DNA of 38,983 bases from an uncultured Bacilli bacterium. Lineage in GTDB: Bacteria > Bacillota_I > Bacilli_A > RF39 > UBA660. The stretch is taken from assembly GCA_944351375.1 (NCBI GenBank), contig CALVPN010000002.1, forward strand, positions 1 through 38,983, written 5' to 3'. Under the pieces are notes generated by a model. It was not told the DNA's origin and did no database searches. It worked only from the letters and a program-made list of their open reading frames with translations. This document shows positions 6,391-32,462 of the stretch, piece by piece. How positions within the stretch are numbered: position 1 is the first letter of the stretch; each line of letters begins with the position of its first letter. The position numbers and the translations under genes were made by a program.

Positions 6391-6657
6391 TTAAAGATTG
6401 TCAAACTTCAGTGTAACAAGTGTACACCCTGGATTCATAAAATCTAATTTATATTCTAAAACTCGTTTTTCTTTTTGCAAATAACTTCCTATTGCATCTT
6501 TTAAAATACCAGATCCAATACCATGTATTATAACAATGTTTTTATATTTGAGCTTATAACAATCATCTATAAATTCTTTTACTTTAAAAACAGCATATTC
6601 TCTATCCATACCATGTAAATCAATACTAGGATAACTAGATAATATCAAGATCCTCAC
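6391..6657 (-). CDS. Smr (small MutS-related) domain protein
   Basis: 88-aa ORF with Smr hallmarks IDLHG...IIHGIGSGILK. Its start overlaps the 3' end of the kinase gene. Confidence 0.8.
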   Translation of the reverse strand: MRILILSSYPSIDLHGMDREYAVFKVKEFIDDCYKLKYKNIVIIHGIGSGILKDAIGSYLQKEKRVLEYKLDFMNPGCTLVTLKFDNL

Positions 6658-7537
6658 TTCTTTCTAAAACGCTTTTTAAACTAGGAATTGAATAGCGTCC
6701 ACCAACTTTTAATGTTGATAAAGCTCCTGTAATATTTGCTAATCTGCAAGTATCTTCAAGACTATAACCATGGGTTATAAAGTACGTAAAAGCCCCATGA
6801 AATATATCACCTGCTCCTGTTGTATCAACAGCTTTCACTTTAATGCTTGGTATTAATTTATATTCATCACCAATTTTAGTAAAACAACCTCTATCTTCTA
6901 AAGTAATAATAACATTATTATGAAAATCATTAACTAACTTTTCGTGCATTTTAATAAGATTTTCAATCTCACCATCATATGGTAATTTAGTATAATCAAG
7001 AGCAAAGTTTTTAGAACAGACAAGATAGTCTACTAAAGGACATAGATTAACAGTTGATGGTTTACAAGTACCAGCATCTATTATTTTAACAGCATCTTTA
7101 TTATTAAGAAGAACCCTTTTACTCATCTCTTCTTCTTCACCATCTACTAAGATAACATCATATTTATTATCATTAAGAATACTACATCTAGCGATAAAAT
7201 CATCTTGACTTGTCAATATAGTCCTTGATGTATTCGTTGTATTGGCAATTATATAACTAAGATTAGTATCCATAGAATCAATAAGTTCTAAAAAGTTAGT
7301 ATCAACACCAACACTGTTAAACTCTTCTTTAATCTTTCTTCCATAATAATCATTACCTACAACACCTTGAAAAGATACATCACATCCCCATAAAGATAAT
7401 AGATAACCAGCATTACTTGCAGGTCCCCCTCCACAATCAATATGTTTCCCAACACGTTTTTTAGTGTTTTCTATAGGAAAGCTATCAACTCGAAAAGTAA
7501 TATCATAAGAAGCATGGCCTATTGTTAAATATTTCAT
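6635..7537 (-). CDS. PfkB/ribokinase-family carbohydrate kinase
   Basis: Shows DTTGAGDIFHGAF and CGGGPASNAG motifs. The track ORF extends to 7621, but that extension reads through intron domains V/VI. MKYLTIGHASYD at 7537 is a typical family N-terminus. An in-frame TTG at 7555 is an alternative start. Confidence 0.85.
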   Translation of the reverse strand: MKYLTIGHASYDITFRVDSFPIENTKKRVGKHIDCGGGPASNAGYLLSLWGCDVSFQGVVGNDYYGRKIKEEFNSVGVDTNFLELIDSMDTNLSYIIANTTNTSRTILTSQDDFIARCSILNDNKYDVILVDGEEEEMSKRVLLNNKDAVKIIDAGTCKPSTVNLCPLVDYLVCSKNFALDYTKLPYDGEIENLIKMHEKLVNDFHNNVIITLEDRGCFTKIGDEYKLIPSIKVKAVDTTGAGDIFHGAFTYFITHGYSLEDTCRLANITGALSTLKVGGRYSIPSLKSVLERSEDLDII

Positions 7538-7613
7538 ATCATGTCGAGTAGACAAGTCTCGACTACACCTCTCTTTCTTTTTTAGTGAGAGGTTTGTCTC
7601 ATTGCCCCTCACA

Positions 7614-7646
7614 GAACCCATCGTGCCCTATTAAGGCAATAGGCTC
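7614..7646 (-). ncRNA. group II intron domain V (catalytic hairpin)
   Basis: Minus strand reads GAGCCTATTGCCTTAATAGGGCACGATGGGTTC. GAGCCTAT pairs with ATGGGTTC, there is a 2-nt CG bulge on the 3' strand, and the AGC triad is at the base. This matches the domain V consensus architecture. Confidence 0.8.
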
Positions 7647-7657
7647 TTCAAATAATC

Positions 7658-8929
7658 TTATATATTCCAGTACCAAATATCTTTGTATATCTTAGGCTCA
7701 GCTATCGGAACTCTTTTAAGTATTTTATTAAATGTTTTGATACTAAGTTTTCTTTGGCTTCTCCTAAATATACTACTTCCGAGTGCATACAAGGTATGAT
7801 AATATATCTTGTATAATTCAATAAGCATACCATTTATTCCATAGTAAGCATATAATCCTATTAATTTCTTATTTAATAGTTTTATTATCTCTATAAATTT
7901 TACTGCTCTATGTTCTTTAATCCATTTTGTAATTGCCTGTTGTTTTAGTTTCTTTTTCTTCTTACTCATTTTATGCCCTACTGTATACTTACCATTTCTT
8001 GTTGTTCCATTGTAGTGCATAAAGCCAAGAAAATCAAATGTTTCTTTTGTTCCTTTAAATCTGCCAAATGGAAGTATTCTTGTTTTATCTTGTTCCATTT
8101 TTAATCCAAATTTTGCTAATCTTTTAATTAATAATTGATATACTTGTTTAGCCTCATTTTCATATTGAAACATTATTATGAAGTCATCAGCATACCTTAC
8201 TAAATATGCTTCTCCTTTTAATTTAGGCTTTATGTACTTTTCAAAGAATAGGTCTAGTACATAATGAAGATATACATTGGCAAGTATTGGCGATATTAGC
8301 CCACCTTGTGGTGTACCTTTATCAGTTTCATAGTATTTCATATCTTCCATGTAACCACTTATTAGAAATCTATTAATGTATCTTAGAAATACTTTATCAT
8401 TAATGTCATGTTCCAGAAATTTCATTAGCCATTTATGGTCAACATTATCAAAGAACCCTTTAATATCACAGTCTAGTATATAGTTAACTTTGTTAATCAT
8501 AATTCGCTGATTTATTTCCCTTATTGCTTGATGGCAACTTCTTTTTGGTCTAAACCCATATGAGCATTCTAGAAATTTGCATTCATAGATTTCGTTTAAT
8601 ATGTCTGCCATAACTCCTTGTACCAATTTATCTTCATATGCTGGTATCCCAAGTGGTCTTAGTTTTCCATTTGCTTTAGGAATATATGTTCTTCTTACTG
8701 GCAATGGTTTATAACTAAATTTCTTCATACGCTCAATTAAATTTTCTATATTGTCTTCTAAACTGATTCCATATTCATCTTTAGTCATTTTATCTATACC
8801 ACTTGCTTTATTTCTTTGTTGTTTCCTGTGTTGTTCTTTTAATCTTTCTTTATTGACAAAATGAATTAAGTTTTCAACTTTGATATTTCTTTGTGCATAA
8901 TATTTTATATCTTTTCGTTCATTTTCCAC
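7658..8929 (-). CDS. group II intron reverse transcriptase/maturase (intron-encoded protein, RT plus X domains, no HNH/En domain)
   Basis: Motifs RPLGIPAYEDKLVQ, GTPQGGLISPILANVYL, YADDFII, and an X-domain-like LIGLYAYYGI. GTG start at 8929, about 10 nt downstream of a GAGGAGG SD. Confidence 0.92.
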   Translation of the reverse strand: MENERKDIKYYAQRNIKVENLIHFVNKERLKEQHRKQQRNKASGIDKMTKDEYGISLEDNIENLIERMKKFSYKPLPVRRTYIPKANGKLRPLGIPAYEDKLVQGVMADILNEIYECKFLECSYGFRPKRSCHQAIREINQRIMINKVNYILDCDIKGFFDNVDHKWLMKFLEHDINDKVFLRYINRFLISGYMEDMKYYETDKGTPQGGLISPILANVYLHYVLDLFFEKYIKPKLKGEAYLVRYADDFIIMFQYENEAKQVYQLLIKRLAKFGLKMEQDKTRILPFGRFKGTKETFDFLGFMHYNGTTRNGKYTVGHKMSKKKKKLKQQAITKWIKEHRAVKFIEIIKLLNKKLIGLYAYYGINGMLIELYKIYYHTLYALGSSIFRRSQRKLSIKTFNKILKRVPIAEPKIYKDIWYWNI

Positions 8930-9549
8930 TTATTATTCCTCCTCATGGGTTGTAAGTGTTTCTCTAAAGAAACGATTATTTGCTAGTCCCTTCGCTCCAT
9001 GGTCGTTACTCATTTCATCACTACTATGAACTAGTCCGACTACTTATATATCTTTTGAATATCTTGGGTTAACCAAGTCCTTGCATATTCATTACCATTA
9101 CTATTAGTATTTTAAACCTTTTAGAATTAGGAATATATAAGTCCTCTCAGGTACGTATATAATAACTATGTAAAACTCGCCATGTCCTAAAGACCCCGAT
9201 AGATTTCTCATAATATCTCGCATTAACGATATTACCGATATTGCATACTGTGTAGGTGACCACATCTGCATCTATTTATTTATTATTTAACGAGGCTCAA
9301 TAACTTCACGCTTACGCATTACGGCTCGAATTCTTGTTTACCTACGCTTAAACCTAGTCTCACGATTTCGGCTCCAAGGCTAACTACTAGCTCTTTGCTA
9401 GAGATTACCAGGTCGGTTTCCCACCGACTATATTATATACGCCGAACTGACGCACCACCGTTTTAATTATAACAATTTTTATTAAAAAAATATATACAAA
9501 AAGCAAGATATTAGTGTAAAGATATGTTACAATTAAATGGGTGTTAAAT

Positions 9550-10149
9550 ATGAAGAAGAAAAAAGATAAGAAAAAATTAACTAAAAAACAAATGATTATA
9601 CTTATTATAGTTACTATTGTCTTAGGCACTTTATGTTATTTTATATCAACAGAGATTACTAAATCTATAATAGATCATAAAACTATGGAAGAGAGATTAA
9701 GGAATGAAGAGTATCCTGATTTAATAGAACCTGATACTATTAGTAATATTTCTTTAAATGATTTAATAAATAATTTTAATGAAATCAGTGCAGAAGATAT
9801 TGATATAAATAGTATAGTTGATAATAAAACAACTATGAATGATATAGAAATAGAATTTTGTCTTAATGAAGATAACGTTAGTATTATAAGTATTAATTTT
9901 AATAAAAAAAGTGATGCACAAGATATAATCACTGATATGATAATTGCAAATAATGAAAATATTACAGAAGAAACAACTACGCTCATATATGATAGAGTAT
10001 TCGAAACCTTAGGTAATACAAATGATAAAGAAAGTAAAACATCAGAGTTTTTTCAATATCAAGGGTTAGAATTTAGTTTAAAAGAATTTAAAGAAAAAAA
10101 TAAGTATAAGTATAGTTTTAGAATAGGTAGAATAATTGAAGAAGAATAA
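9550..10149 (+). CDS. hypothetical membrane-anchored protein
   Basis: Plus-strand ORF. ATG at 9550 follows a GGGTG SD-like element. Lys-rich N-terminus, then the helix MIILIIVTIVLGTLCYFI. A terminator follows at 10221. Confidence 0.6.
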   Translation: MKKKKDKKKLTKKQMIILIIVTIVLGTLCYFISTEITKSIIDHKTMEERLRNEEYPDLIEPDTISNISLNDLINNFNEISAEDIDINSIVDNKTTMNDIEIEFCLNEDNVSIISINFNKKSDAQDIITDMIIANNENITEETTTLIYDRVFETLGNTNDKESKTSEFFQYQGLEFSLKEFKEKNKYKYSFRIGRIIEEE

Positions 10150-10213
10150 GAAACAAAAAATTAAAAAATCTAGTTTGATTAAAGAGAAGAATATATTTAA
10201 GGACAAAAATTAC

Positions 10214-10250
10214 AAAAAAAGACAGTAATTTCAACAATTATTGTCTTTTT
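10214..10250. terminator. bidirectional rho-independent terminator
   Basis: GACAGTAATT (loop TCAAC) AATTATTGTC forms a 10-bp stem with one G-U pair. It is flanked by an A7 run on the left and a T5 run on the right, so it can terminate both the + ORF and minus-strand transcription from the 630-aa gene. Confidence 0.7.
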
Positions 10251-10260
10251 GTCATATATC

Positions 10261-10350
10261 TTATTTTATCCCTATAATCACGTTGTCATTGTAACTCTCG
10301 TTACCATTGTTGTTGACATACCGAACGGTTGACGAAGATTTTGGTAATCC
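10261..10350 (-). pseudogene. decayed, internally deleted third copy of the C-terminal lectin-module/cassette region (30 codons ending in TAA)
   Basis: The minus strand GGATTACCAAAATCTTCGTCAACCGTTCGGTATGTCAACAACAATGGTAACGAG... translates to GLPKSSSTVRYVNNNGNESYNDNVIIGIK*. This aligns with GLTKS[YWTLTPYS]SSHVRNLNYYGSANN...NVEI of the gene end. It has no start codon and lies in intergenic DNA. Confidence 0.55.
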
Positions 10351-10393
10351 CCTACTATAATTTATTTAAACTAATTATAGCCTAACTTAATTA

Positions 10394-10431
10394 GTCAACA
10401 ATCTAGAAAATACATTTCCTAGATTGCTGAC
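10394..10431 (-). other. 13-bp hairpin starting 2 nt after the stop codon of the 630-aa gene (no U-tract)
   Basis: Minus strand GTCAGCAATCTAG (12-nt loop) CTAGATTGTTGAC, with one G-U pair. It is followed by TAATTAAG, so it is not a canonical terminator. Confidence 0.7.
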
Positions 10432-10433
10432 AC

Positions 10434-12326
10434 CTAACTACCTAAAGTTAGAACAAATGGATCTGATTTTACACCTGTCCCTGAGGTTATCTCAACATTA
10501 GATTTTAGATTTATTGATGGACGGACGCCGCCAGCATCGGTCGGATTGTAGAGGTTGTTCGCGCTGCCGTAGTAGTTGAGGTTACGCACGTGAGACGAAC
10601 TATATGGTGTTAAGGTCCAATAAGATTTTGTTAATCCTGTACTAGAACTTCCTCCTTTAACTGCATATCTTTCAAATTGACCTGACATTAATTCACCTAA
10701 CCTTAGTAGACCCACTTTAGCATTAGTTGTGTTTGAAGTTGTACTACTCATATTGGTATCTGTATATTTTGCTAATTTATAACTTGTACCATTTCCTACT
10801 GTTCCTAGATACCATGTAGTATTATCTTCTATCATATTACTATATGCACTATCTACATAACTTGTTAGATAGTCTCCATTTAAAAATGTTCCTATAGTAT
10901 TACTATTAGAAAATGTTATATTACTTCCAAAAACACTTGTTACAAAGTTTCCAGAACTCTTTAATGGTTCGGCACTGACTATTTTTGTACCTACTCCGTT
11001 TTCATGACTTACTATTCTATAGAGATTATTTTCATCATTTCCAAAGCGAATGTATTCTCCACTATATCTAGTTGACAACAATGTTCCTGAAAGGTCTGTA
11101 TCGTTATCTCCATTTAAACGATATGGGTTATCTACTGTACCATCTCCATCTACGATTTTGACGTTAGATTTTAGATTTATTGATGGACGGACGCCGTAAG
11201 CAAAGGTGGGATTGTTGTTGTCCGCGTTGCCGTTGTAGTAGACGTTACGCACGTAAGACGAACTATATAGTGTTAAGGTCCACCAATCAAGTCCATTATT
11301 TAAATAACCGCTTCTATAAGTTGTTCCATTATAACTAGATTGATATTCATACATATTCAAAAGCCCTACTGCATTTGTGACCACTGTTGTTCCATTAGGT
11401 CTTGTTATACTTCCTAATTCTCTATCATCCATAGTTGCATCCCATACTGCATCCGTTACTATAAACTTTTCTGGATCTCTTAAATTACCTAAAAATCCAT
11501 CGACACTTGTATCATTTAACCACTCTTGCATATAACTTCCTTCAAAATCAGTATTATCACTTGAATTATAAGGTATTGCACTTATATTCCATTGTGTTAC
11601 TAACTTTACACTGTTATCACTTGGATCTATTGATACTGCCCTCCATAACTTTCCACTATACCAGATATAGTTATTTGGATCGTCTCCAGTTATAAAGGTT
11701 TGTTCTTCATCTGTTGTATTTATATTTTCTTCTGGTAAATTTCTTAATAAAACACTTGCAACACTTTTATCTTTTTCTTGACTTACTTCTACTCTTAACT
11801 TTCCACTAAATACTTGACCACTATAATTACCATCAACTTCACCTGTTATCCATAAGTTTAAACTATATTCATTTGTTTCTTTTCCTTCTATAGTCCCACT
11901 ATCTAATACTCTATTAGGATTACTTCCTATTGATGTTAAAAGCTTCGCTCCACTGCTTTCTCCATTCTTTACTAGATTATACTTTAAGAACTTATCATCT
12001 ATTCTAGTATCAGTATCACTTATAGTATTATCATCTAAATATATTATATAATCTACTGCTTTACTTCCATTATTTATTAATTTAAATGTTGAACCTTCTA
12101 GTGATAATCCTTCACTATCACTTATACCTATAGCATTATCTAGACTTATTCCTTCACTCGTCTCATCAAGTACTAAATCTAATGTTCCCACTTTTACTAC
12201 TTGATCTGTTCCAGATAACTGAGTTCTAAAAAAAGCATAACTTACTGCCATTATCAAAATTATAATGATTAATATACTTATTACTATTGTAATTATCTTT
12301 TTCTTTTTATCATCTTTCTTTTCCAT
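10434..12326 (-). CDS. secreted/surface protein: SipW-type signal plus TasA/camelysin-like N-domain, then two divergent lectin-like (DUF1566-like, ...YWTLT...GVRP) modules, each carrying a hypervariable cassette
   Basis: 630-aa ORF with a GAAGGAG SD. The N-terminus ...AVSYAFFRTQLSGTDQVVKVGTLDLVL resembles the TasA/CalY signal and mature start. Both modules end in ...SSS(H/Y)VRN...GVRPSINLKSNV. Confidence 0.85.
   Translation of the reverse strand: MEKKDDKKKKIITIVISILIIIILIMAVSYAFFRTQLSGTDQVVKVGTLDLVLDETSEGISLDNAIGISDSEGLSLEGSTFKLINNGSKAVDYIIYLDDNTISDTDTRIDDKFLKYNLVKNGESSGAKLLTSIGSNPNRVLDSGTIEGKETNEYSLNLWITGEVDGNYSGQVFSGKLRVEVSQEKDKSVASVLLRNLPEENINTTDEEQTFITGDDPNNYIWYSGKLWRAVSIDPSDNSVKLVTQWNISAIPYNSSDNTDFEGSYMQEWLNDTSVDGFLGNLRDPEKFIVTDAVWDATMDDRELGSITRPNGTTVVTNAVGLLNMYEYQSSYNGTTYRSGYLNNGLDWWTLTLYSSSYVRNVYYNGNADNNNPTFAYGVRPSINLKSNVKIVDGDGTVDNPYRLNGDNDTDLSGTLLSTRYSGEYIRFGNDENNLYRIVSHENGVGTKIVSAEPLKSSGNFVTSVFGSNITFSNSNTIGTFLNGDYLTSYVDSAYSNMIEDNTTWYLGTVGNGTSYKLAKYTDTNMSSTTSNTTNAKVGLLRLGELMSGQFERYAVKGGSSSTGLTKSYWTLTPYSSSHVRNLNYYGSANNLYNPTDAGGVRPSINLKSNVEITSGTGVKSDPFVLTLGS
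10498..10619 (-). repeat. VR-like cassette A (122 nt, C-terminal module)
   Basis: TGGACCTTAACACCATATAGTTCGTCTCACGTGCGTAACCTCAACTACTACGGCAGCGCGAACAACCTCTACAATCCGACCGATGCTGGCGGCGTCCGTCCATCAATAAATCTAAAATCTAA. By hand count about 59 of 122 nt are G/C, in an otherwise very AT-rich gene. Confidence 0.8.
11164..11282 (-). repeat. VR-like cassette B (119 nt, internal module)
   Basis: The flanks match cassette A exactly. There are about 14 substitutions plus one codon indel. Sequence outside the cassette is not alignable at DNA level. Confidence 0.8.
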
Positions 12327-19073: not shown

Positions 19074-19919
19074 TTAAATTAACTTTTGTAATTCCTCTAT
19101 ACTAAGCCCTGTATTTTTAGACACAGATTCTATAGGCATACCATCTTTAAGAAGGTTCTTAGCAATAGAAATTTTTTCTTCCTTTTTACCTTCTTCAAGT
19201 CCTTCAGCTTTTCCATCATCGTAACCCCAATTACGAGCAGTATTAATCATTCTTTTCTGCATCTCTTCATTATCATAAATTACCCCAAACTTGTCATCAA
19301 TTCCTAGTTTCTCTAACTCATCCACGATTTTTAAAGCCTCCTTATCGTCTCCTGCTATTTCTCTTAACTCTTCGTAAGATGTTGCAGTAAATAAAGATAA
19401 ATACATTTCTTCTTTATTGTCTCCATTATATCTTATTCCCTTGTAATTTTCAAGATACACTTCATGTATCTTGAAATCTTTTATTTCTTTATGTGTATCT
19501 AAATCCATAACAGAATAAGATGCTTTACTAACATAAGGATGCTTCTCTTTATTAAAGTTTATTTGAATAATATATTTTTTCTTTACATCTTCTCCACTAT
19601 TTAAACTTTTAGCAAGTAAGGTATACACATATAATCTATTCTTAAACTTTGTAACCTCACTAGGAAACTGATTCATCTCTATCGAGATAATTATATCAAT
19701 ATCACTATTTACAAGTAATAAATCTAAACGATAATCACGTTTTTCATTACCACTATTAAGTTCGGCATCATATAATTCAAAATTACTAATATCCATATCT
19801 ATAATAGATTTAACAATAACATTAAAGAACTCTTTATACTCCTCTTTTTTAAACAAGTGTTTAAATGTAGTATCACTTAACAAGCTTATAAACCTTTTTT
19901 CTTTCTTTTTATCTTTCAT
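19074..19919 (-). CDS. Rpn-family recombination-promoting nuclease / PD-(D/E)XK putative transposase, copy 1
   Basis: LLSDTTFKHLF...YRLDLLL...IISIEMNQ matches the layout of PDDEXK_2/YhgA-like proteins. A paralog lies at 31489..32352. Confidence 0.75.
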   Translation of the reverse strand: MKDKKKEKRFISLLSDTTFKHLFKKEEYKEFFNVIVKSIIDMDISNFELYDAELNSGNEKRDYRLDLLLVNSDIDIIISIEMNQFPSEVTKFKNRLYVYTLLAKSLNSGEDVKKKYIIQINFNKEKHPYVSKASYSVMDLDTHKEIKDFKIHEVYLENYKGIRYNGDNKEEMYLSLFTATSYEELREIAGDDKEALKIVDELEKLGIDDKFGVIYDNEEMQKRMINTARNWGYDDGKAEGLEEGKKEEKISIAKNLLKDGMPIESVSKNTGLSIEELQKLI

Positions 19920-25949: not shown

Positions 25950-26534
25950 TTATCCAATAACACCAGAAATTGTACAAGAAGCAGGACTATAAGCTTCAAA
26001 TGTAGTATTACTATCAGCTTGATACAATTTTAATGTACCACCCTCACTTATAGTACTTTGAAAATTACTATTTGATGATTTTTCTGCATCTTTTTCTATA
26101 ACTAAATCTCCATCAAGAGTACTTTCTAACAATACTCCAAATCCATTACCTGCTTTATCTGTCATTTGTACAAAATATTCATATTTGTCCTGACCTGATG
26201 TTGTATTATTGAAAACAATAACATAACTATTATCAGAATAATCTTGTCCAAAAGGACTTTCATGAGAACCACTTTCTAGAGCAACAGAATTTGTAGACAC
26301 CGCTAAACATTCCCCTCTACCTGGCATCTTAGTAGCATCATACTCTCCATTTACAAAGCTAAGTCTAACAGCATGAGCATATTGTTGCGCCGTAGTAACA
26401 AAAGTATCCTTTCTTGCATCTCTAATATATCCAGACATTGCTGTAATTGCTAGTGTCATTAATATAGCTAAAATAATGATAACTGCTAATAATTCGATTA
26501 ATGTAAAACCTTTTCTGTTTAATTTTTTTATCAT
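25950..26534 (-). CDS. prepilin-type N-terminal cleavage/methylation domain protein (type IV pilin/pseudopilin)
   Basis: N-terminus KGFTLIELLAVIIILAILMTLAI. Confidence 0.85.
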   Translation of the reverse strand: MIKKLNRKGFTLIELLAVIIILAILMTLAITAMSGYIRDARKDTFVTTAQQYAHAVRLSFVNGEYDATKMPGRGECLAVSTNSVALESGSHESPFGQDYSDNSYVIVFNNTTSGQDKYEYFVQMTDKAGNGFGVLLESTLDGDLVIEKDAEKSSNSNFQSTISEGGTLKLYQADSNTTFEAYSPASCTISGVIG

Positions 26535-26579
26535 AAAATAACCTCCATATTCTTCTAATAAATCATAACAAAATTTCTA

Positions 26580-27092
26580 TTAACTGTCAATAATGTTTGT
26601 AACAGTATAACCATTTATATTAGAACCAATTGTTGGTTTTACAATGGTTAAATCATCATTACTAAATACATTTTTTCTAGCATTTTCTTTATTCAGTTCA
26701 TTCCTAGAAGTTAATGGTATTCCCCTTTTTGAATCATCATAATTTTCAACTATTGTTGCATAGTAAAGATAGGAATTACCATTTCTCGCTACTAAAACAT
26801 AAGAGTTTTCTAAATCATAACTTCCTCCTTCTGGTCCTTCATTAAAATCACTCAAATCAAGAGAATTTAAAGGAACAATAATACAATTACCAGATGTAGG
26901 AAGAGGAATACTTGTATCACTTCTAATTTTATATTCTGCTAGTGTTATCATTTTTTTAGCATCTTCAACATATGTATCCTGTTTATTTTTATCTATTGTA
27001 CTCATAACATTTGGAACTGCTATTATCATTATTAATGCTAATATTAATATAGTTGCTAATAATTCAATTAATGTAAAGCCATTCTTTTTCAT
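26580..27092 (-). CDS. prepilin-type N-terminal cleavage/methylation domain protein (type IV pilin/pseudopilin)
   Basis: N-terminus MKKNGFTLIELLATILILALIMIIAV. Confidence 0.85.
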   Translation of the reverse strand: MKKNGFTLIELLATILILALIMIIAVPNVMSTIDKNKQDTYVEDAKKMITLAEYKIRSDTSIPLPTSGNCIIVPLNSLDLSDFNEGPEGGSYDLENSYVLVARNGNSYLYYATIVENYDDSKRGIPLTSRNELNKENARKNVFSNDDLTIVKPTIGSNINGYTVTNIIDS

Positions 27093-31488: not shown

Positions 31489-32352
31489 TTAGTTTTTATC
31501 AGTTGATATTGTTTCGAGCAAATGATTAATTTCTTCAAGACTTAAACCAGTAGATTTCATTATATCTTCTTTAGAAATATTAAGGTTAAGAAGCTTTTTT
31601 GCAATATTTATTTTCTCTTCACTCTTACCTTTTTCAACTCCTTTTTCAATTCCTTCTTCTAGGCCTTCTACTCTAGCAGTATTTATTAATTTATTTCTTA
31701 CTACCTCTTCTTCATATAAAGCATTGAATTCGTCATTTTCTTTTAATTTTTCTAATTCATCCACAATTATACTTGCCTCCTCATCTTCACCTGCTATTTC
31801 TCTTAACTCTTCGTAAGACTCTGCTGTAAATAAAGATATTAACATAGCATCTTTGTTACTTCCATTATATCTTATTCCCTTAAATTTGTGAAGATAAACT
31901 TCATAATCTTTTATTCCTTCTATTACACTACCATATTCTATATCTCTAAAATCATATGTTAAAGTAAAGGCCCTTCTATTAATTGAACATAATGAATTAT
32001 TAAAGTTTATTTGTAGCACTTCTTTTTTCTTATATACTTCTCCTTCTTTAAAATTACTTCCCGCAAGTCTAAATAAATATGAATGATTCTTTATTAGTGT
32101 ACTATCTCTTGGATCTTTATTCATTTCTATAGATATTACATTATCACCTTTTCTTAATAAGATATCTAATCTATAATCTTTTATCTTATTACCACTATTA
32201 AGTTCATTATCATATAAGGTATATCCTTCTATGTCAATACCAGTTGCATACATTATTACTCGCCTAAAAAACTTTTGAAATCTTTCATCTTTAAACATAT
32301 ATTTAAAGACAGAATCATTTAATAGTCCTATAAATTGTTTATTTTCTATCAT
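31489..32352 (-). CDS. Rpn-family recombination-promoting nuclease / PD-(D/E)XK putative transposase, copy 2
   Basis: Paralog of 19074..19919. Shares YRLD(L/I)LL, ISIEMN and FTA(T/E)SYEELREIAG(D/E)D..A..IVDELEKL, with long near-identical DNA stretches. The track start is TTG at 32385; ATG at 32352 is preferred. Confidence 0.75.
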   Translation of the reverse strand: MIENKQFIGLLNDSVFKYMFKDERFQKFFRRVIMYATGIDIEGYTLYDNELNSGNKIKDYRLDILLRKGDNVISIEMNKDPRDSTLIKNHSYLFRLAGSNFKEGEVYKKKEVLQINFNNSLCSINRRAFTLTYDFRDIEYGSVIEGIKDYEVYLHKFKGIRYNGSNKDAMLISLFTAESYEELREIAGEDEEASIIVDELEKLKENDEFNALYEEEVVRNKLINTARVEGLEEGIEKGVEKGKSEEKINIAKKLLNLNISKEDIMKSTGLSLEEINHLLETISTDKN

Positions 32353-32462
32353 ATATTTTCTCACTTTCTTATAAAATTTTTTCAATACTTTGCAAAGTAA
32401 TTTAAATCTATCATATTAAAAAGTATAGGACAAATTAATGTTTTTTAAATTTCATGAAAAAA

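Follow-up and report, generated by a model that had tools for sequence, protein, structure and literature searches.

The stretch of DNA analysed here (the window: 38,983 nt, contig CALVPN010000002.1 of assembly GCA_944351375.1, from an uncultured Bacilli bacterium) carries on its minus strand a gene for a predicted surface protein of 630 aa, in which two near-identical GC-rich cassettes are embedded. We conclude that these cassettes are very probably the variable regions (VRs), named VR-A and VR-B, of the target gene of a diversity-generating retroelement (DGR), written through the copying of a template repeat (TR) by a reverse transcriptase (RT), and that the writer is no longer attached to its target in the window. 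A DGR origin of the cassettes had been proposed in a first-pass annotation made from the letters of the window, and it was upheld by related genomes: there, the homologous target genes are followed by an AAC-rich TR, a homologue of Avd and an RT with the motifs IGNYTSQ and YMDD, and the VRs differ from that TR almost only at its adenines. The parts of the target gene are as follows, where ORF stands for open reading frame and IMH for initiation of mutagenic homing.

10434..12326, minus strand: target gene, an ORF of 630 aa with an N-terminal transmembrane/signal segment, a beta-rich N-domain and two DUF6273 modules
About 11127-11744, minus strand: DUF6273 module A, with a variable cassette at the module's end
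About 10437-11057, minus strand: DUF6273 module B, with a variable cassette at the module's end
11164..11282, minus strand: VR-A, an internal variable region at the C-terminus of module A (aa 349-388); WTLTLYSSSYVRNVYYNGNADNNNPTFAYGVRPSINLKSN
10498..10619, minus strand: VR-B, a variable region at the C-terminus of module B (aa 570-610), with one extra codon compared with VR-A
11164..11195, minus strand: IMH-like 3' boundary of VR-A, made up of a GC-rich block GGCGTCCGTCC and, behind it, a 21-nt tail ATCAATAAATCTAAAATCTAA
10498..10529, minus strand: IMH-like 3' boundary of VR-B, identical over its 32 nt to that of VR-A

The two cassettes share 86-87% identity over about 122 nt (blastn match of 125 nt, E 1.6e-39). 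The blastn search gave no DNA alignment of modules A and B outside the cassettes, and as proteins the modules are 36% identical, mostly owing to the cassette. The 5' flank TGGACCTTAACAC is identical in both copies and so is the 32-nt block GGCGTCCGTCCATCAATAAATCTAAAATCTAA at the 3' end (10498-10529 and 11164-11195). Thus, the positions of the cassettes, their identical flanks and the non-alignable modules around them were found as first described. Among the 20 largest repeat families listed for the window, only the cassettes reach 89% identity, and the other direct repeats shown are AT-rich with an identity of at most 82%. Recounting of the differences between VR-A and VR-B gave one codon indel and 13 substitutions, which affect 10 codons and were distributed over the codon positions 1, 2 and 3 as 8, 4 and 1. 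The earlier count of about 14 substitutions, 13 of them at codon positions 1-2, is therefore to be slightly corrected, but the bias toward these positions and the single codon indel remain. The codon usage of the cassettes is as anomalous as it had seemed: the GC content at third codon positions (GC3) was 64% in the 67 cassette codons versus 13.5% in the remaining 563.

The 3' ends of the cassettes had been likened to an IMH element, and this likeness is strengthened both by the identity of the 32-nt block in the two VRs and by the related loci described below, in which the TR-VR homology ends within the GC-rich block. The IMH-like tail of the VRs doubles as coding sequence and encodes SINLKSN. 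Its codons AAT CTA AAA, which include the rare leucine codon CTA, were invariant at the DNA level in all 26 of the 26 cassettes listed, most of which also retained the longer run ATA AAT CTA AAA TCT.

The comparison of the target protein with the Pfam family DUF6273 (PF19789) returned two stretches (E 9.6e-12, 45.5 bits; cut-off 23.5). The best of them, aa 468-609, covers profile positions 29-172 of 172, which places the VR at the C-terminus of the domain. The modules had first been taken for the DUF1566/C-type-lectin type; Pfam assigns them to DUF6273 instead, above the curated threshold. The N-domain, described earlier as TasA/SipW-type, did show a match of the N-terminal 200 aa to Peptidase_M73 (the camelysin/TasA family; E 0.0055), but at 17 bits this stays below the Pfam cut-off of 22.5. 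The AlphaFold2 model of the full-length protein was not usable (predicted local distance difference test, pLDDT, 48), and module B was remodelled with a deeper, diverse alignment. This model reached a pLDDT of 94.4 and its best Foldseek matches were DUF6273 proteins; in BFVD these were phage DUF6273 proteins, with E values down to 6e-8. The VR-B stretch was modelled as a beta-hairpin with loops and had the lowest local pLDDT, 85. DUF6273 would serve as the ligand-binding domain of a cell-surface protein, with the varied residues at the C-terminal end of the domain. The protein has more than 3000 homologues from gut metagenomes, some of them named Candidatus Onthousia, the closest being 98% identical. 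No NCBIfam matches were obtained for the target protein, nor for the Avd-like and 112-aa ORFs of the related loci.

The intact form of the system was found in related genomes and metagenomes, the fetched loci of which are numbered L001-L031. For this, 185,579 species-representative (GTDB) genomes were scanned with a pattern that fixed only the non-adenine bases of the cassettes. This returned 15 loci, among them L009, which is noncoding and AAC-rich. Its TR reads ACG TCT AAC GTG CGT AAC GTC AAC AAC AAT GGC GAC GCG AAC AAC AAC ACT CCG ACT AAT GCT AAC GGG GTT CG. In L009 the end of the target gene with a VR-B cassette is followed by a leader, the TR about 100 nt past the stop, a 74-aa ORF, a 113-aa ORF and an RT of 317 aa; the C-terminus ...SDPFVLTLGS of the window protein recurs in this target gene. 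A search with the L009 RT then led to L022, L025 and L027, each of which has a full-length target gene with both VR-A and VR-B, a single TR, a 112-aa ORF, a 114-aa ORF and the RT, in this order. The TR of all four loci is AAC-rich, noncoding and located about 100 nt past the target stop, and their TR-VR homology ends at ...CGN C|CAT inside the GC-rich block. All five RTs checked (L009, L018, L022, L025 and L027) carry IGNYTSQ, which conforms to the DGR signature [I/L/V]GxxxSQ, together with YMDD. The 113/114-aa ORF overlaps the RT start and was matched by PHROG 3206, 'Avd protein of DGR', with E 2.2e-5, whereas its match to Pfam bAvd was weak (E 0.08); its profile search of PDB sequences gave zero matches. 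The surroundings of the intact loci are chromosomal (ackA, uvrC, mutL, lepA), and IMG/VR held no match to the TR spacer or to the VR patterns of the target family. The window gene has housekeeping genes for neighbours: efp, tig and queA lie upstream of it, pfkB and a gene with an Smr domain downstream. The relatives with a DGR are Onthousia-like uncultured Bacilli with small genomes, recorded as 'Tenericutes' or 'Bacilli' among metagenome-assembled genomes.

Two further features of these loci were noted. A 112-aa ORF is conserved between the TR and avd in L018, L022 and L024-L029 (74 aa in L009); it matched nothing in Pfam, NCBIfam or PHROG and may be an extra accessory gene peculiar to this DGR lineage. 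About 45 nt upstream of it lies a poly-T tract of 9 to 20 T, depending on the locus, which might switch the expression of avd/RT through strand slippage.

L018 2131-2469, L022 1359-1697, L025 7345-7683 and L027 7345-7683 (no strand assigned): 112-aa conserved ORF
L009 ~890, L018 ~2082, L022 ~1300, L025 ~7289, L026 ~10, L027 ~7286, L028 ~322 and L029 ~344: poly-T tract

The TRs of L009 and L022 were used as independent definers of adenine sites, and the coincidence of the VR differences with these sites was evaluated by a hypergeometric test. Ten of the 12 alignable differences between VR-A and VR-B fell on adenines of the related TRs (p ~1e-4). The window VRs were also compared with VRs of the same signature in L001 and L020, and 14/16, 15/16 and 17/18 of the differences were at TR adenines (p down to 4e-10). 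It had been claimed that every substitution could derive from a template A; judged by the TRs of related species this holds for the ten, but GTC/CTC and CCC/CCG are located where those TRs have G. The CTA/CCA difference sits at the 5' edge of the TR homology, and the related TRs read CCA there. In L022, L025 and L027, where the TR is at hand, both VRs deviate from the single TR almost exclusively at its adenines. The same stretches are hypervariable at the protein level. In an alignment of 45 homologues with 67-80% identity, the mean column entropy was 2.16 bits in the VR cores versus 0.77 in the other columns. Of the 40 most variable positions, 24 fell within the two cassettes, the hypervariable columns being aa 358-377 in VR-A and aa 579-599 in VR-B. 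Meanwhile, synonymous variants at non-adenine sites are specific to a genome and common to its VRs: GTC CGT in the window, GTG CGA in L002, GGG GCT CGG in L019, and GTT CGG in L008 and L027. Such sharing is expected if a single TR per genome templates all of its VRs.

The established DGR pathway and the intact relatives together suggest how the cassettes may have arisen. The DGR reverse transcriptase and Avd would copy an RNA containing one AAC-rich template repeat, and the cDNA would gain random bases opposite the template adenines. By retrohoming, this cDNA would then replace each VR up to the GC-rich boundary that precedes the conserved tail, so that modules A and B would both draw their sequence from one template. 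One shared template would explain why the VRs are alike at non-adenine positions and are rich in GC-rich NNC codons foreign to an AT-rich genome. It would also confine the VR differences to positions 1 and 2 of the codons, with one third-position change counted in our data. At present, the VRs of the window would either be orphans with a frozen sequence or be served remotely by a DGR at another place in the genome.

The sequence directly past the target gene bears the remains of such a locus.

10394..10431, minus strand: conserved 17-bp hairpin directly past the stop, within the leader and 66 nt after VR-B
10278..10342, minus strand: truncated, decayed TR relic of 65 nt, AAAATCTTCGTCAACCGTTCGGTATGTCAACAACAATGGTAACGAGAGTTACAATGACAACGTGA, which aligns with the TR of intact DGR loci
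10213..10245, no strand assigned: hairpin with a T-run, read from the sequence; it separates the target gene from the convergent 202-aa ORF and marks where the homology to DGR loci is over
9541..10149, plus strand: 202-aa ORF, convergent to the target gene and beyond the end of the DGR homology

The first 94 nt past the stop (10343-10436) are ~90% identical to the L009 leader and are shared with intact DGR loci. The 17-bp hairpin in this leader was supported by RNAalifold in six loci (17 pairs, -23.7 kcal/mol), with one pair occurring as UA, GC and CG; its candidate roles are those of a terminator, an RNA element of the DGR, or an element for target recognition. The relic that follows has accumulated many substitutions and has lost the 3' part of the TR; the spacer, the 112-aa ORF, avd and the RT are also missing downstream. 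It differs from the window VRs at many non-A sites, which excludes it as the template now in use. When both strands of the window were scanned for a TR, without gaps and with tolerance at A, nothing but the two VRs came up. The interval from the target gene to the convergent 202-aa ORF holds no avd-like ORF, and the window has no DGR-type RT, the only RT there being a group II intron maturase. The 112-aa ORF, avd, the RT and the 3' end of the TR have been deleted here, and a working DGR is absent from the window. The first-pass annotation had proposed a search for an A-bearing copy of the cassette next to a DGR RT and Avd: the window has only the relic, which that annotation had overlooked, but the complete set is intact in the relatives. 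The right-hand junction of the relic, AATGACAACGTGATTATAGG...GACAATAATTGTTG, is shared base for base by L002, a species whose target protein is only 74% identical to that of the window.

Several results weigh against the reading of the cassettes as DGR variable regions. The TR cognate to the window VRs should carry the signature TCTNNCGTGCGTNNCNTCNNCNNCNNCGGCNNCGCGNNCNNCNNCNNTCCNACCNNTGCTNNCGGCGTCCG then CATTTCCTTTTAAA. No TR matching the VRs at non-A sites was found in the window, the 185,579 species-representative genomes, JGI metagenomes, IMG/VR or the fetched loci, and the pattern scans for the signature returned only VRs, or nothing. Compared with the window VRs, the L009 and L022 TRs show 9-15 mismatches at non-A sites. 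Among the RT-bearing loci fetched, L022, L025, L027, L028 and L029 have TR types that are not cognate to these VRs, and L023, L024, L026, L030 and L031 begin downstream of the TR. Among 11 strains that are 96-100% identical, VR-A has one variable residue and VR-B three. The one strongly divergent VR-B, that of L001, at first a candidate for rewriting in situ, was rejected as such: as far as about nt 1620 of the gene, L001 and the window agree at 99.9% (3 mismatches in 4.6 kb), and they are unrelated thereafter, so that a recombined 3' tract was exchanged together with its flanks. No stable hairpin was found directly behind the VRs (97-nt folds from the VR ends had z-scores of -0.08 and -0.71); in BPP-1 a hairpin/cruciform directly 3' of the VR is needed, but such hairpins are not universal among DGRs. 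Finally, Mtd and TvpA, the classical DGR targets of the C-type-lectin type, were not among the Foldseek matches of the module B model. The low turnover of the VRs is by itself weak evidence, since the VRs of L022 and L025, two intact DGRs from different studies, are also nearly identical.

Accepting the cassettes as DGR variable regions, we considered where their writer might be. An active DGR with a cognate TR at an unlinked place in the same genome could rewrite both VRs in trans, and the local relic would then be an older dead copy. We regard this as a serious possibility that nevertheless falls short of being the favoured one; more probably, the VRs are orphans that have lost their writer in recent times. 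By our count, VR-A and VR-B have no difference outside candidate template adenines, and they keep a GC3 of 64% in a gene of 13.5%, as would be expected of regions that were templated recently or are still serviced. The two-VR genes of L003 and of the closed genome OZ006970.1 (L017/L021), for which no TR was detectable, behave otherwise: their VRs have diverged from each other at non-A sites. The four within-cassette polymorphisms among the close strains (L/P, S/A, H/Y and L/I) are all on codons that vary between the VRs, and at three of these sites an adenine is present in the TR of L009 or L022. L002 has the relic and its junction in common with the window, yet each of the two species has its own concerted VR signature. 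Remote targets are also known for chromosomal DGRs (PMC5758913). As for the failure to find a cognate TR in any of the collections searched, the contigs of the RT-bearing loci of this family are mostly 1-5 kb and often break in or next to the TR or at the poly-T tract, and they are therefore easily lost from bins. That absence still counts against a remote writer, as do the almost static VRs of the 11 strains and the evidence of sample BRZ_ET. From this sample (CALVVB01) come L011 and L020, paralogous targets with extra C-terminal membrane anchors and the non-A signature of the window. The same sample also yielded the intact DGR of L025 at a coverage like that of L011, but with a TR that does not fit this signature. 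Two VR classes and only one matching TR may thus coexist in a single genome (L011/L020/L025).

The age of the deletion bears on the same question. The VR pair of the window looks fresh, with no non-adenine drift and the high GC3, although its relic junction is shared with L002. If the deletion preceded the split of the two species, something unlinked would have had to maintain the concerted VRs; we put this forward as a doubtful deduction only. Equally speculative are the forces that could be invoked, namely a second DGR with a TR type absent from the databases, or a resident DGR that is non-cognate, or exchange from VR to VR, working in a manner that has not been described before.

Plain gene conversion between the modules or paralogues, combined with diversifying selection and without any retroelement, is a very improbable origin of the cassettes. 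Recombination is frequent at this locus, as seen from the L001 breakpoint and from L020, which is 98.2% identical to the window between the VRs and 80% upstream. Some exchange from VR to VR is also suggested by TTT GCT TAC, common to VR-A of the window and VR-B of L001, and by AGC CTG TAC GGT, which is shared by both VRs of L022 and is one base off in VR-B of L025. However, gene conversion would homogenise all sites, whereas the observed differences cluster at the adenines of an independent TR. It also leaves the NNC/GC-rich codons, which run against the genome bias, without explanation, and likewise the noncoding AAC-rich copy that the relatives have just behind the gene, together with Avd and a DGR RT.

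The only RT of the window was the last candidate for the writer. It belongs to the following element.

7658..8929, minus strand: RT/maturase of a group II intron (TIGR04416, 367.8 bits; cut-off 300)
9183-9421, minus strand: D1-D4 RNA of the group II intron (RF02005, 110.5 bits; gathering score 49)
7540-9440 of the window, minus strand: group II intron, between the 202-aa ORF and pfkB

That this RT should serve the cassettes as a DGR RT is next to impossible: it adjoins the target gene (1.5 kb downstream, on the same strand), but its motifs are QGGLISP and YADD with no [ILV]GxxxSQ, its TIGR04416 score and the RF02005 RNA identify it as a group II intron protein, no TR lies alongside, and neither of the syntenic loci, L002 and L003, has the insert. 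The pfkB ORF next to the intron (6635..7621) appears to be 28 codons longer than those of the relatives, presumably because its frame is open into the 3' end of the intron.

The DGR family of the window was compared with known systems. DUF6273 proteins are already published as DGR targets, namely the tentaclins of the gut Firmicutes phages nd4 and nd12 (PMC10743442) and the targets in the Faecalibacterium prophages Lelie, CP11, Roos and Pioen (PMC11792537), so that the coupling of a DGR to the present domain, which had been presented as DUF1566-like, is not in itself new. The phage targets have the same Pfam domain, a VR at the C-terminus (a surface beta-hairpin with loops) and rewriting of AAC-type codons. 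The target of the window differs from them in being chromosomal, with an N-terminal membrane/signal segment, housekeeping neighbours, tandem modules each with a VR, and a deleted local DGR. Compared with the mtd-avd-TR-brt locus of BPP-1, the intact relatives likewise have a 3' VR, a TR behind the target, Avd, an [ILV]GxxxSQ RT, adenine specificity and a GC-rich 3' limit. In contrast to BPP-1, the TR here precedes avd and a 112-aa ORF lies between them, the tail past the GC block is unlike the TR continuation rather than differing from it at a few bases, no stable hairpin follows the VRs, and the target has DUF6273 instead of the Mtd fold.

Two VRs in one protein had been called unusual. They are indeed rare but already documented, as the CLec1 target has two internal VRs and a third one besides (Wu et al. 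2018, PMC5758913). Here as there, several VRs per ORF are paired with one TR, and the IMH-like tail of an internal VR must also code; the domain family and the host clade differ, and the template of the window is lost. Chromosomal DGRs with remote targets are represented by the TvpA family of Treponema denticola and by Legionella (PMC4891356, PMC5758913). They resemble the present system in not being phage-borne and in the sharing of one VR signature by several paralogous surface targets (here L011 and L020 versus the window), but the matching TR is present in those genomes and none was found for the window. Both DUF6273 DGR targets and multi-VR targets were known before, and our analysis adds no new mechanism. 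It documents a DGR family in small-genome uncultured gut Bacilli in which the two tandem DUF6273 modules of a chromosomal surface protein receive their diversity from a single template. It also indicates that DGR target genes can be recognised on contigs without an RT or TR, and that a nearby RT can mislead.

Within the clade, the stages of DGR decay are seen side by side: intact, disrupted by an insertion sequence (IS), TR-only, relic and leader-only. In L018 (Ca. Onthousia faecavium, DVIS01000024.1), an IS transposase at 530-1579 separates the target gene from avd/RT, and the IS element has removed all of the TR except its last ~40 nt; this locus is a natural knockout of the DGR template. 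L013 has a TR and no RT, and L008 and L019 have the leader only, or part of it. Such a series could reveal the fate of hypervariable surface proteins once the mutator is lost, and it raises the question of whether orphan VRs are frozen at a selected sequence or serviced in trans.

Other repeats of the window lie apart from the target gene. The paralogous genes 19074..19919 and 31489..32385 have about 72% DNA identity between 19288-19775 and 31727-32217. They resemble HTH_Rpn_C / PDDEXK_2-type genes of the relatives, and a gene of this type is also located directly downstream of the DGR RT in L022, L023, L025 and L031. At 25950-27092, two adjacent small genes on the minus strand share a 72-nt 5' stretch (26442-26513 and 27012-27083) with 78% identity; by the look of their sequences, they may be tandem pilin-like or pseudopilin-like genes.

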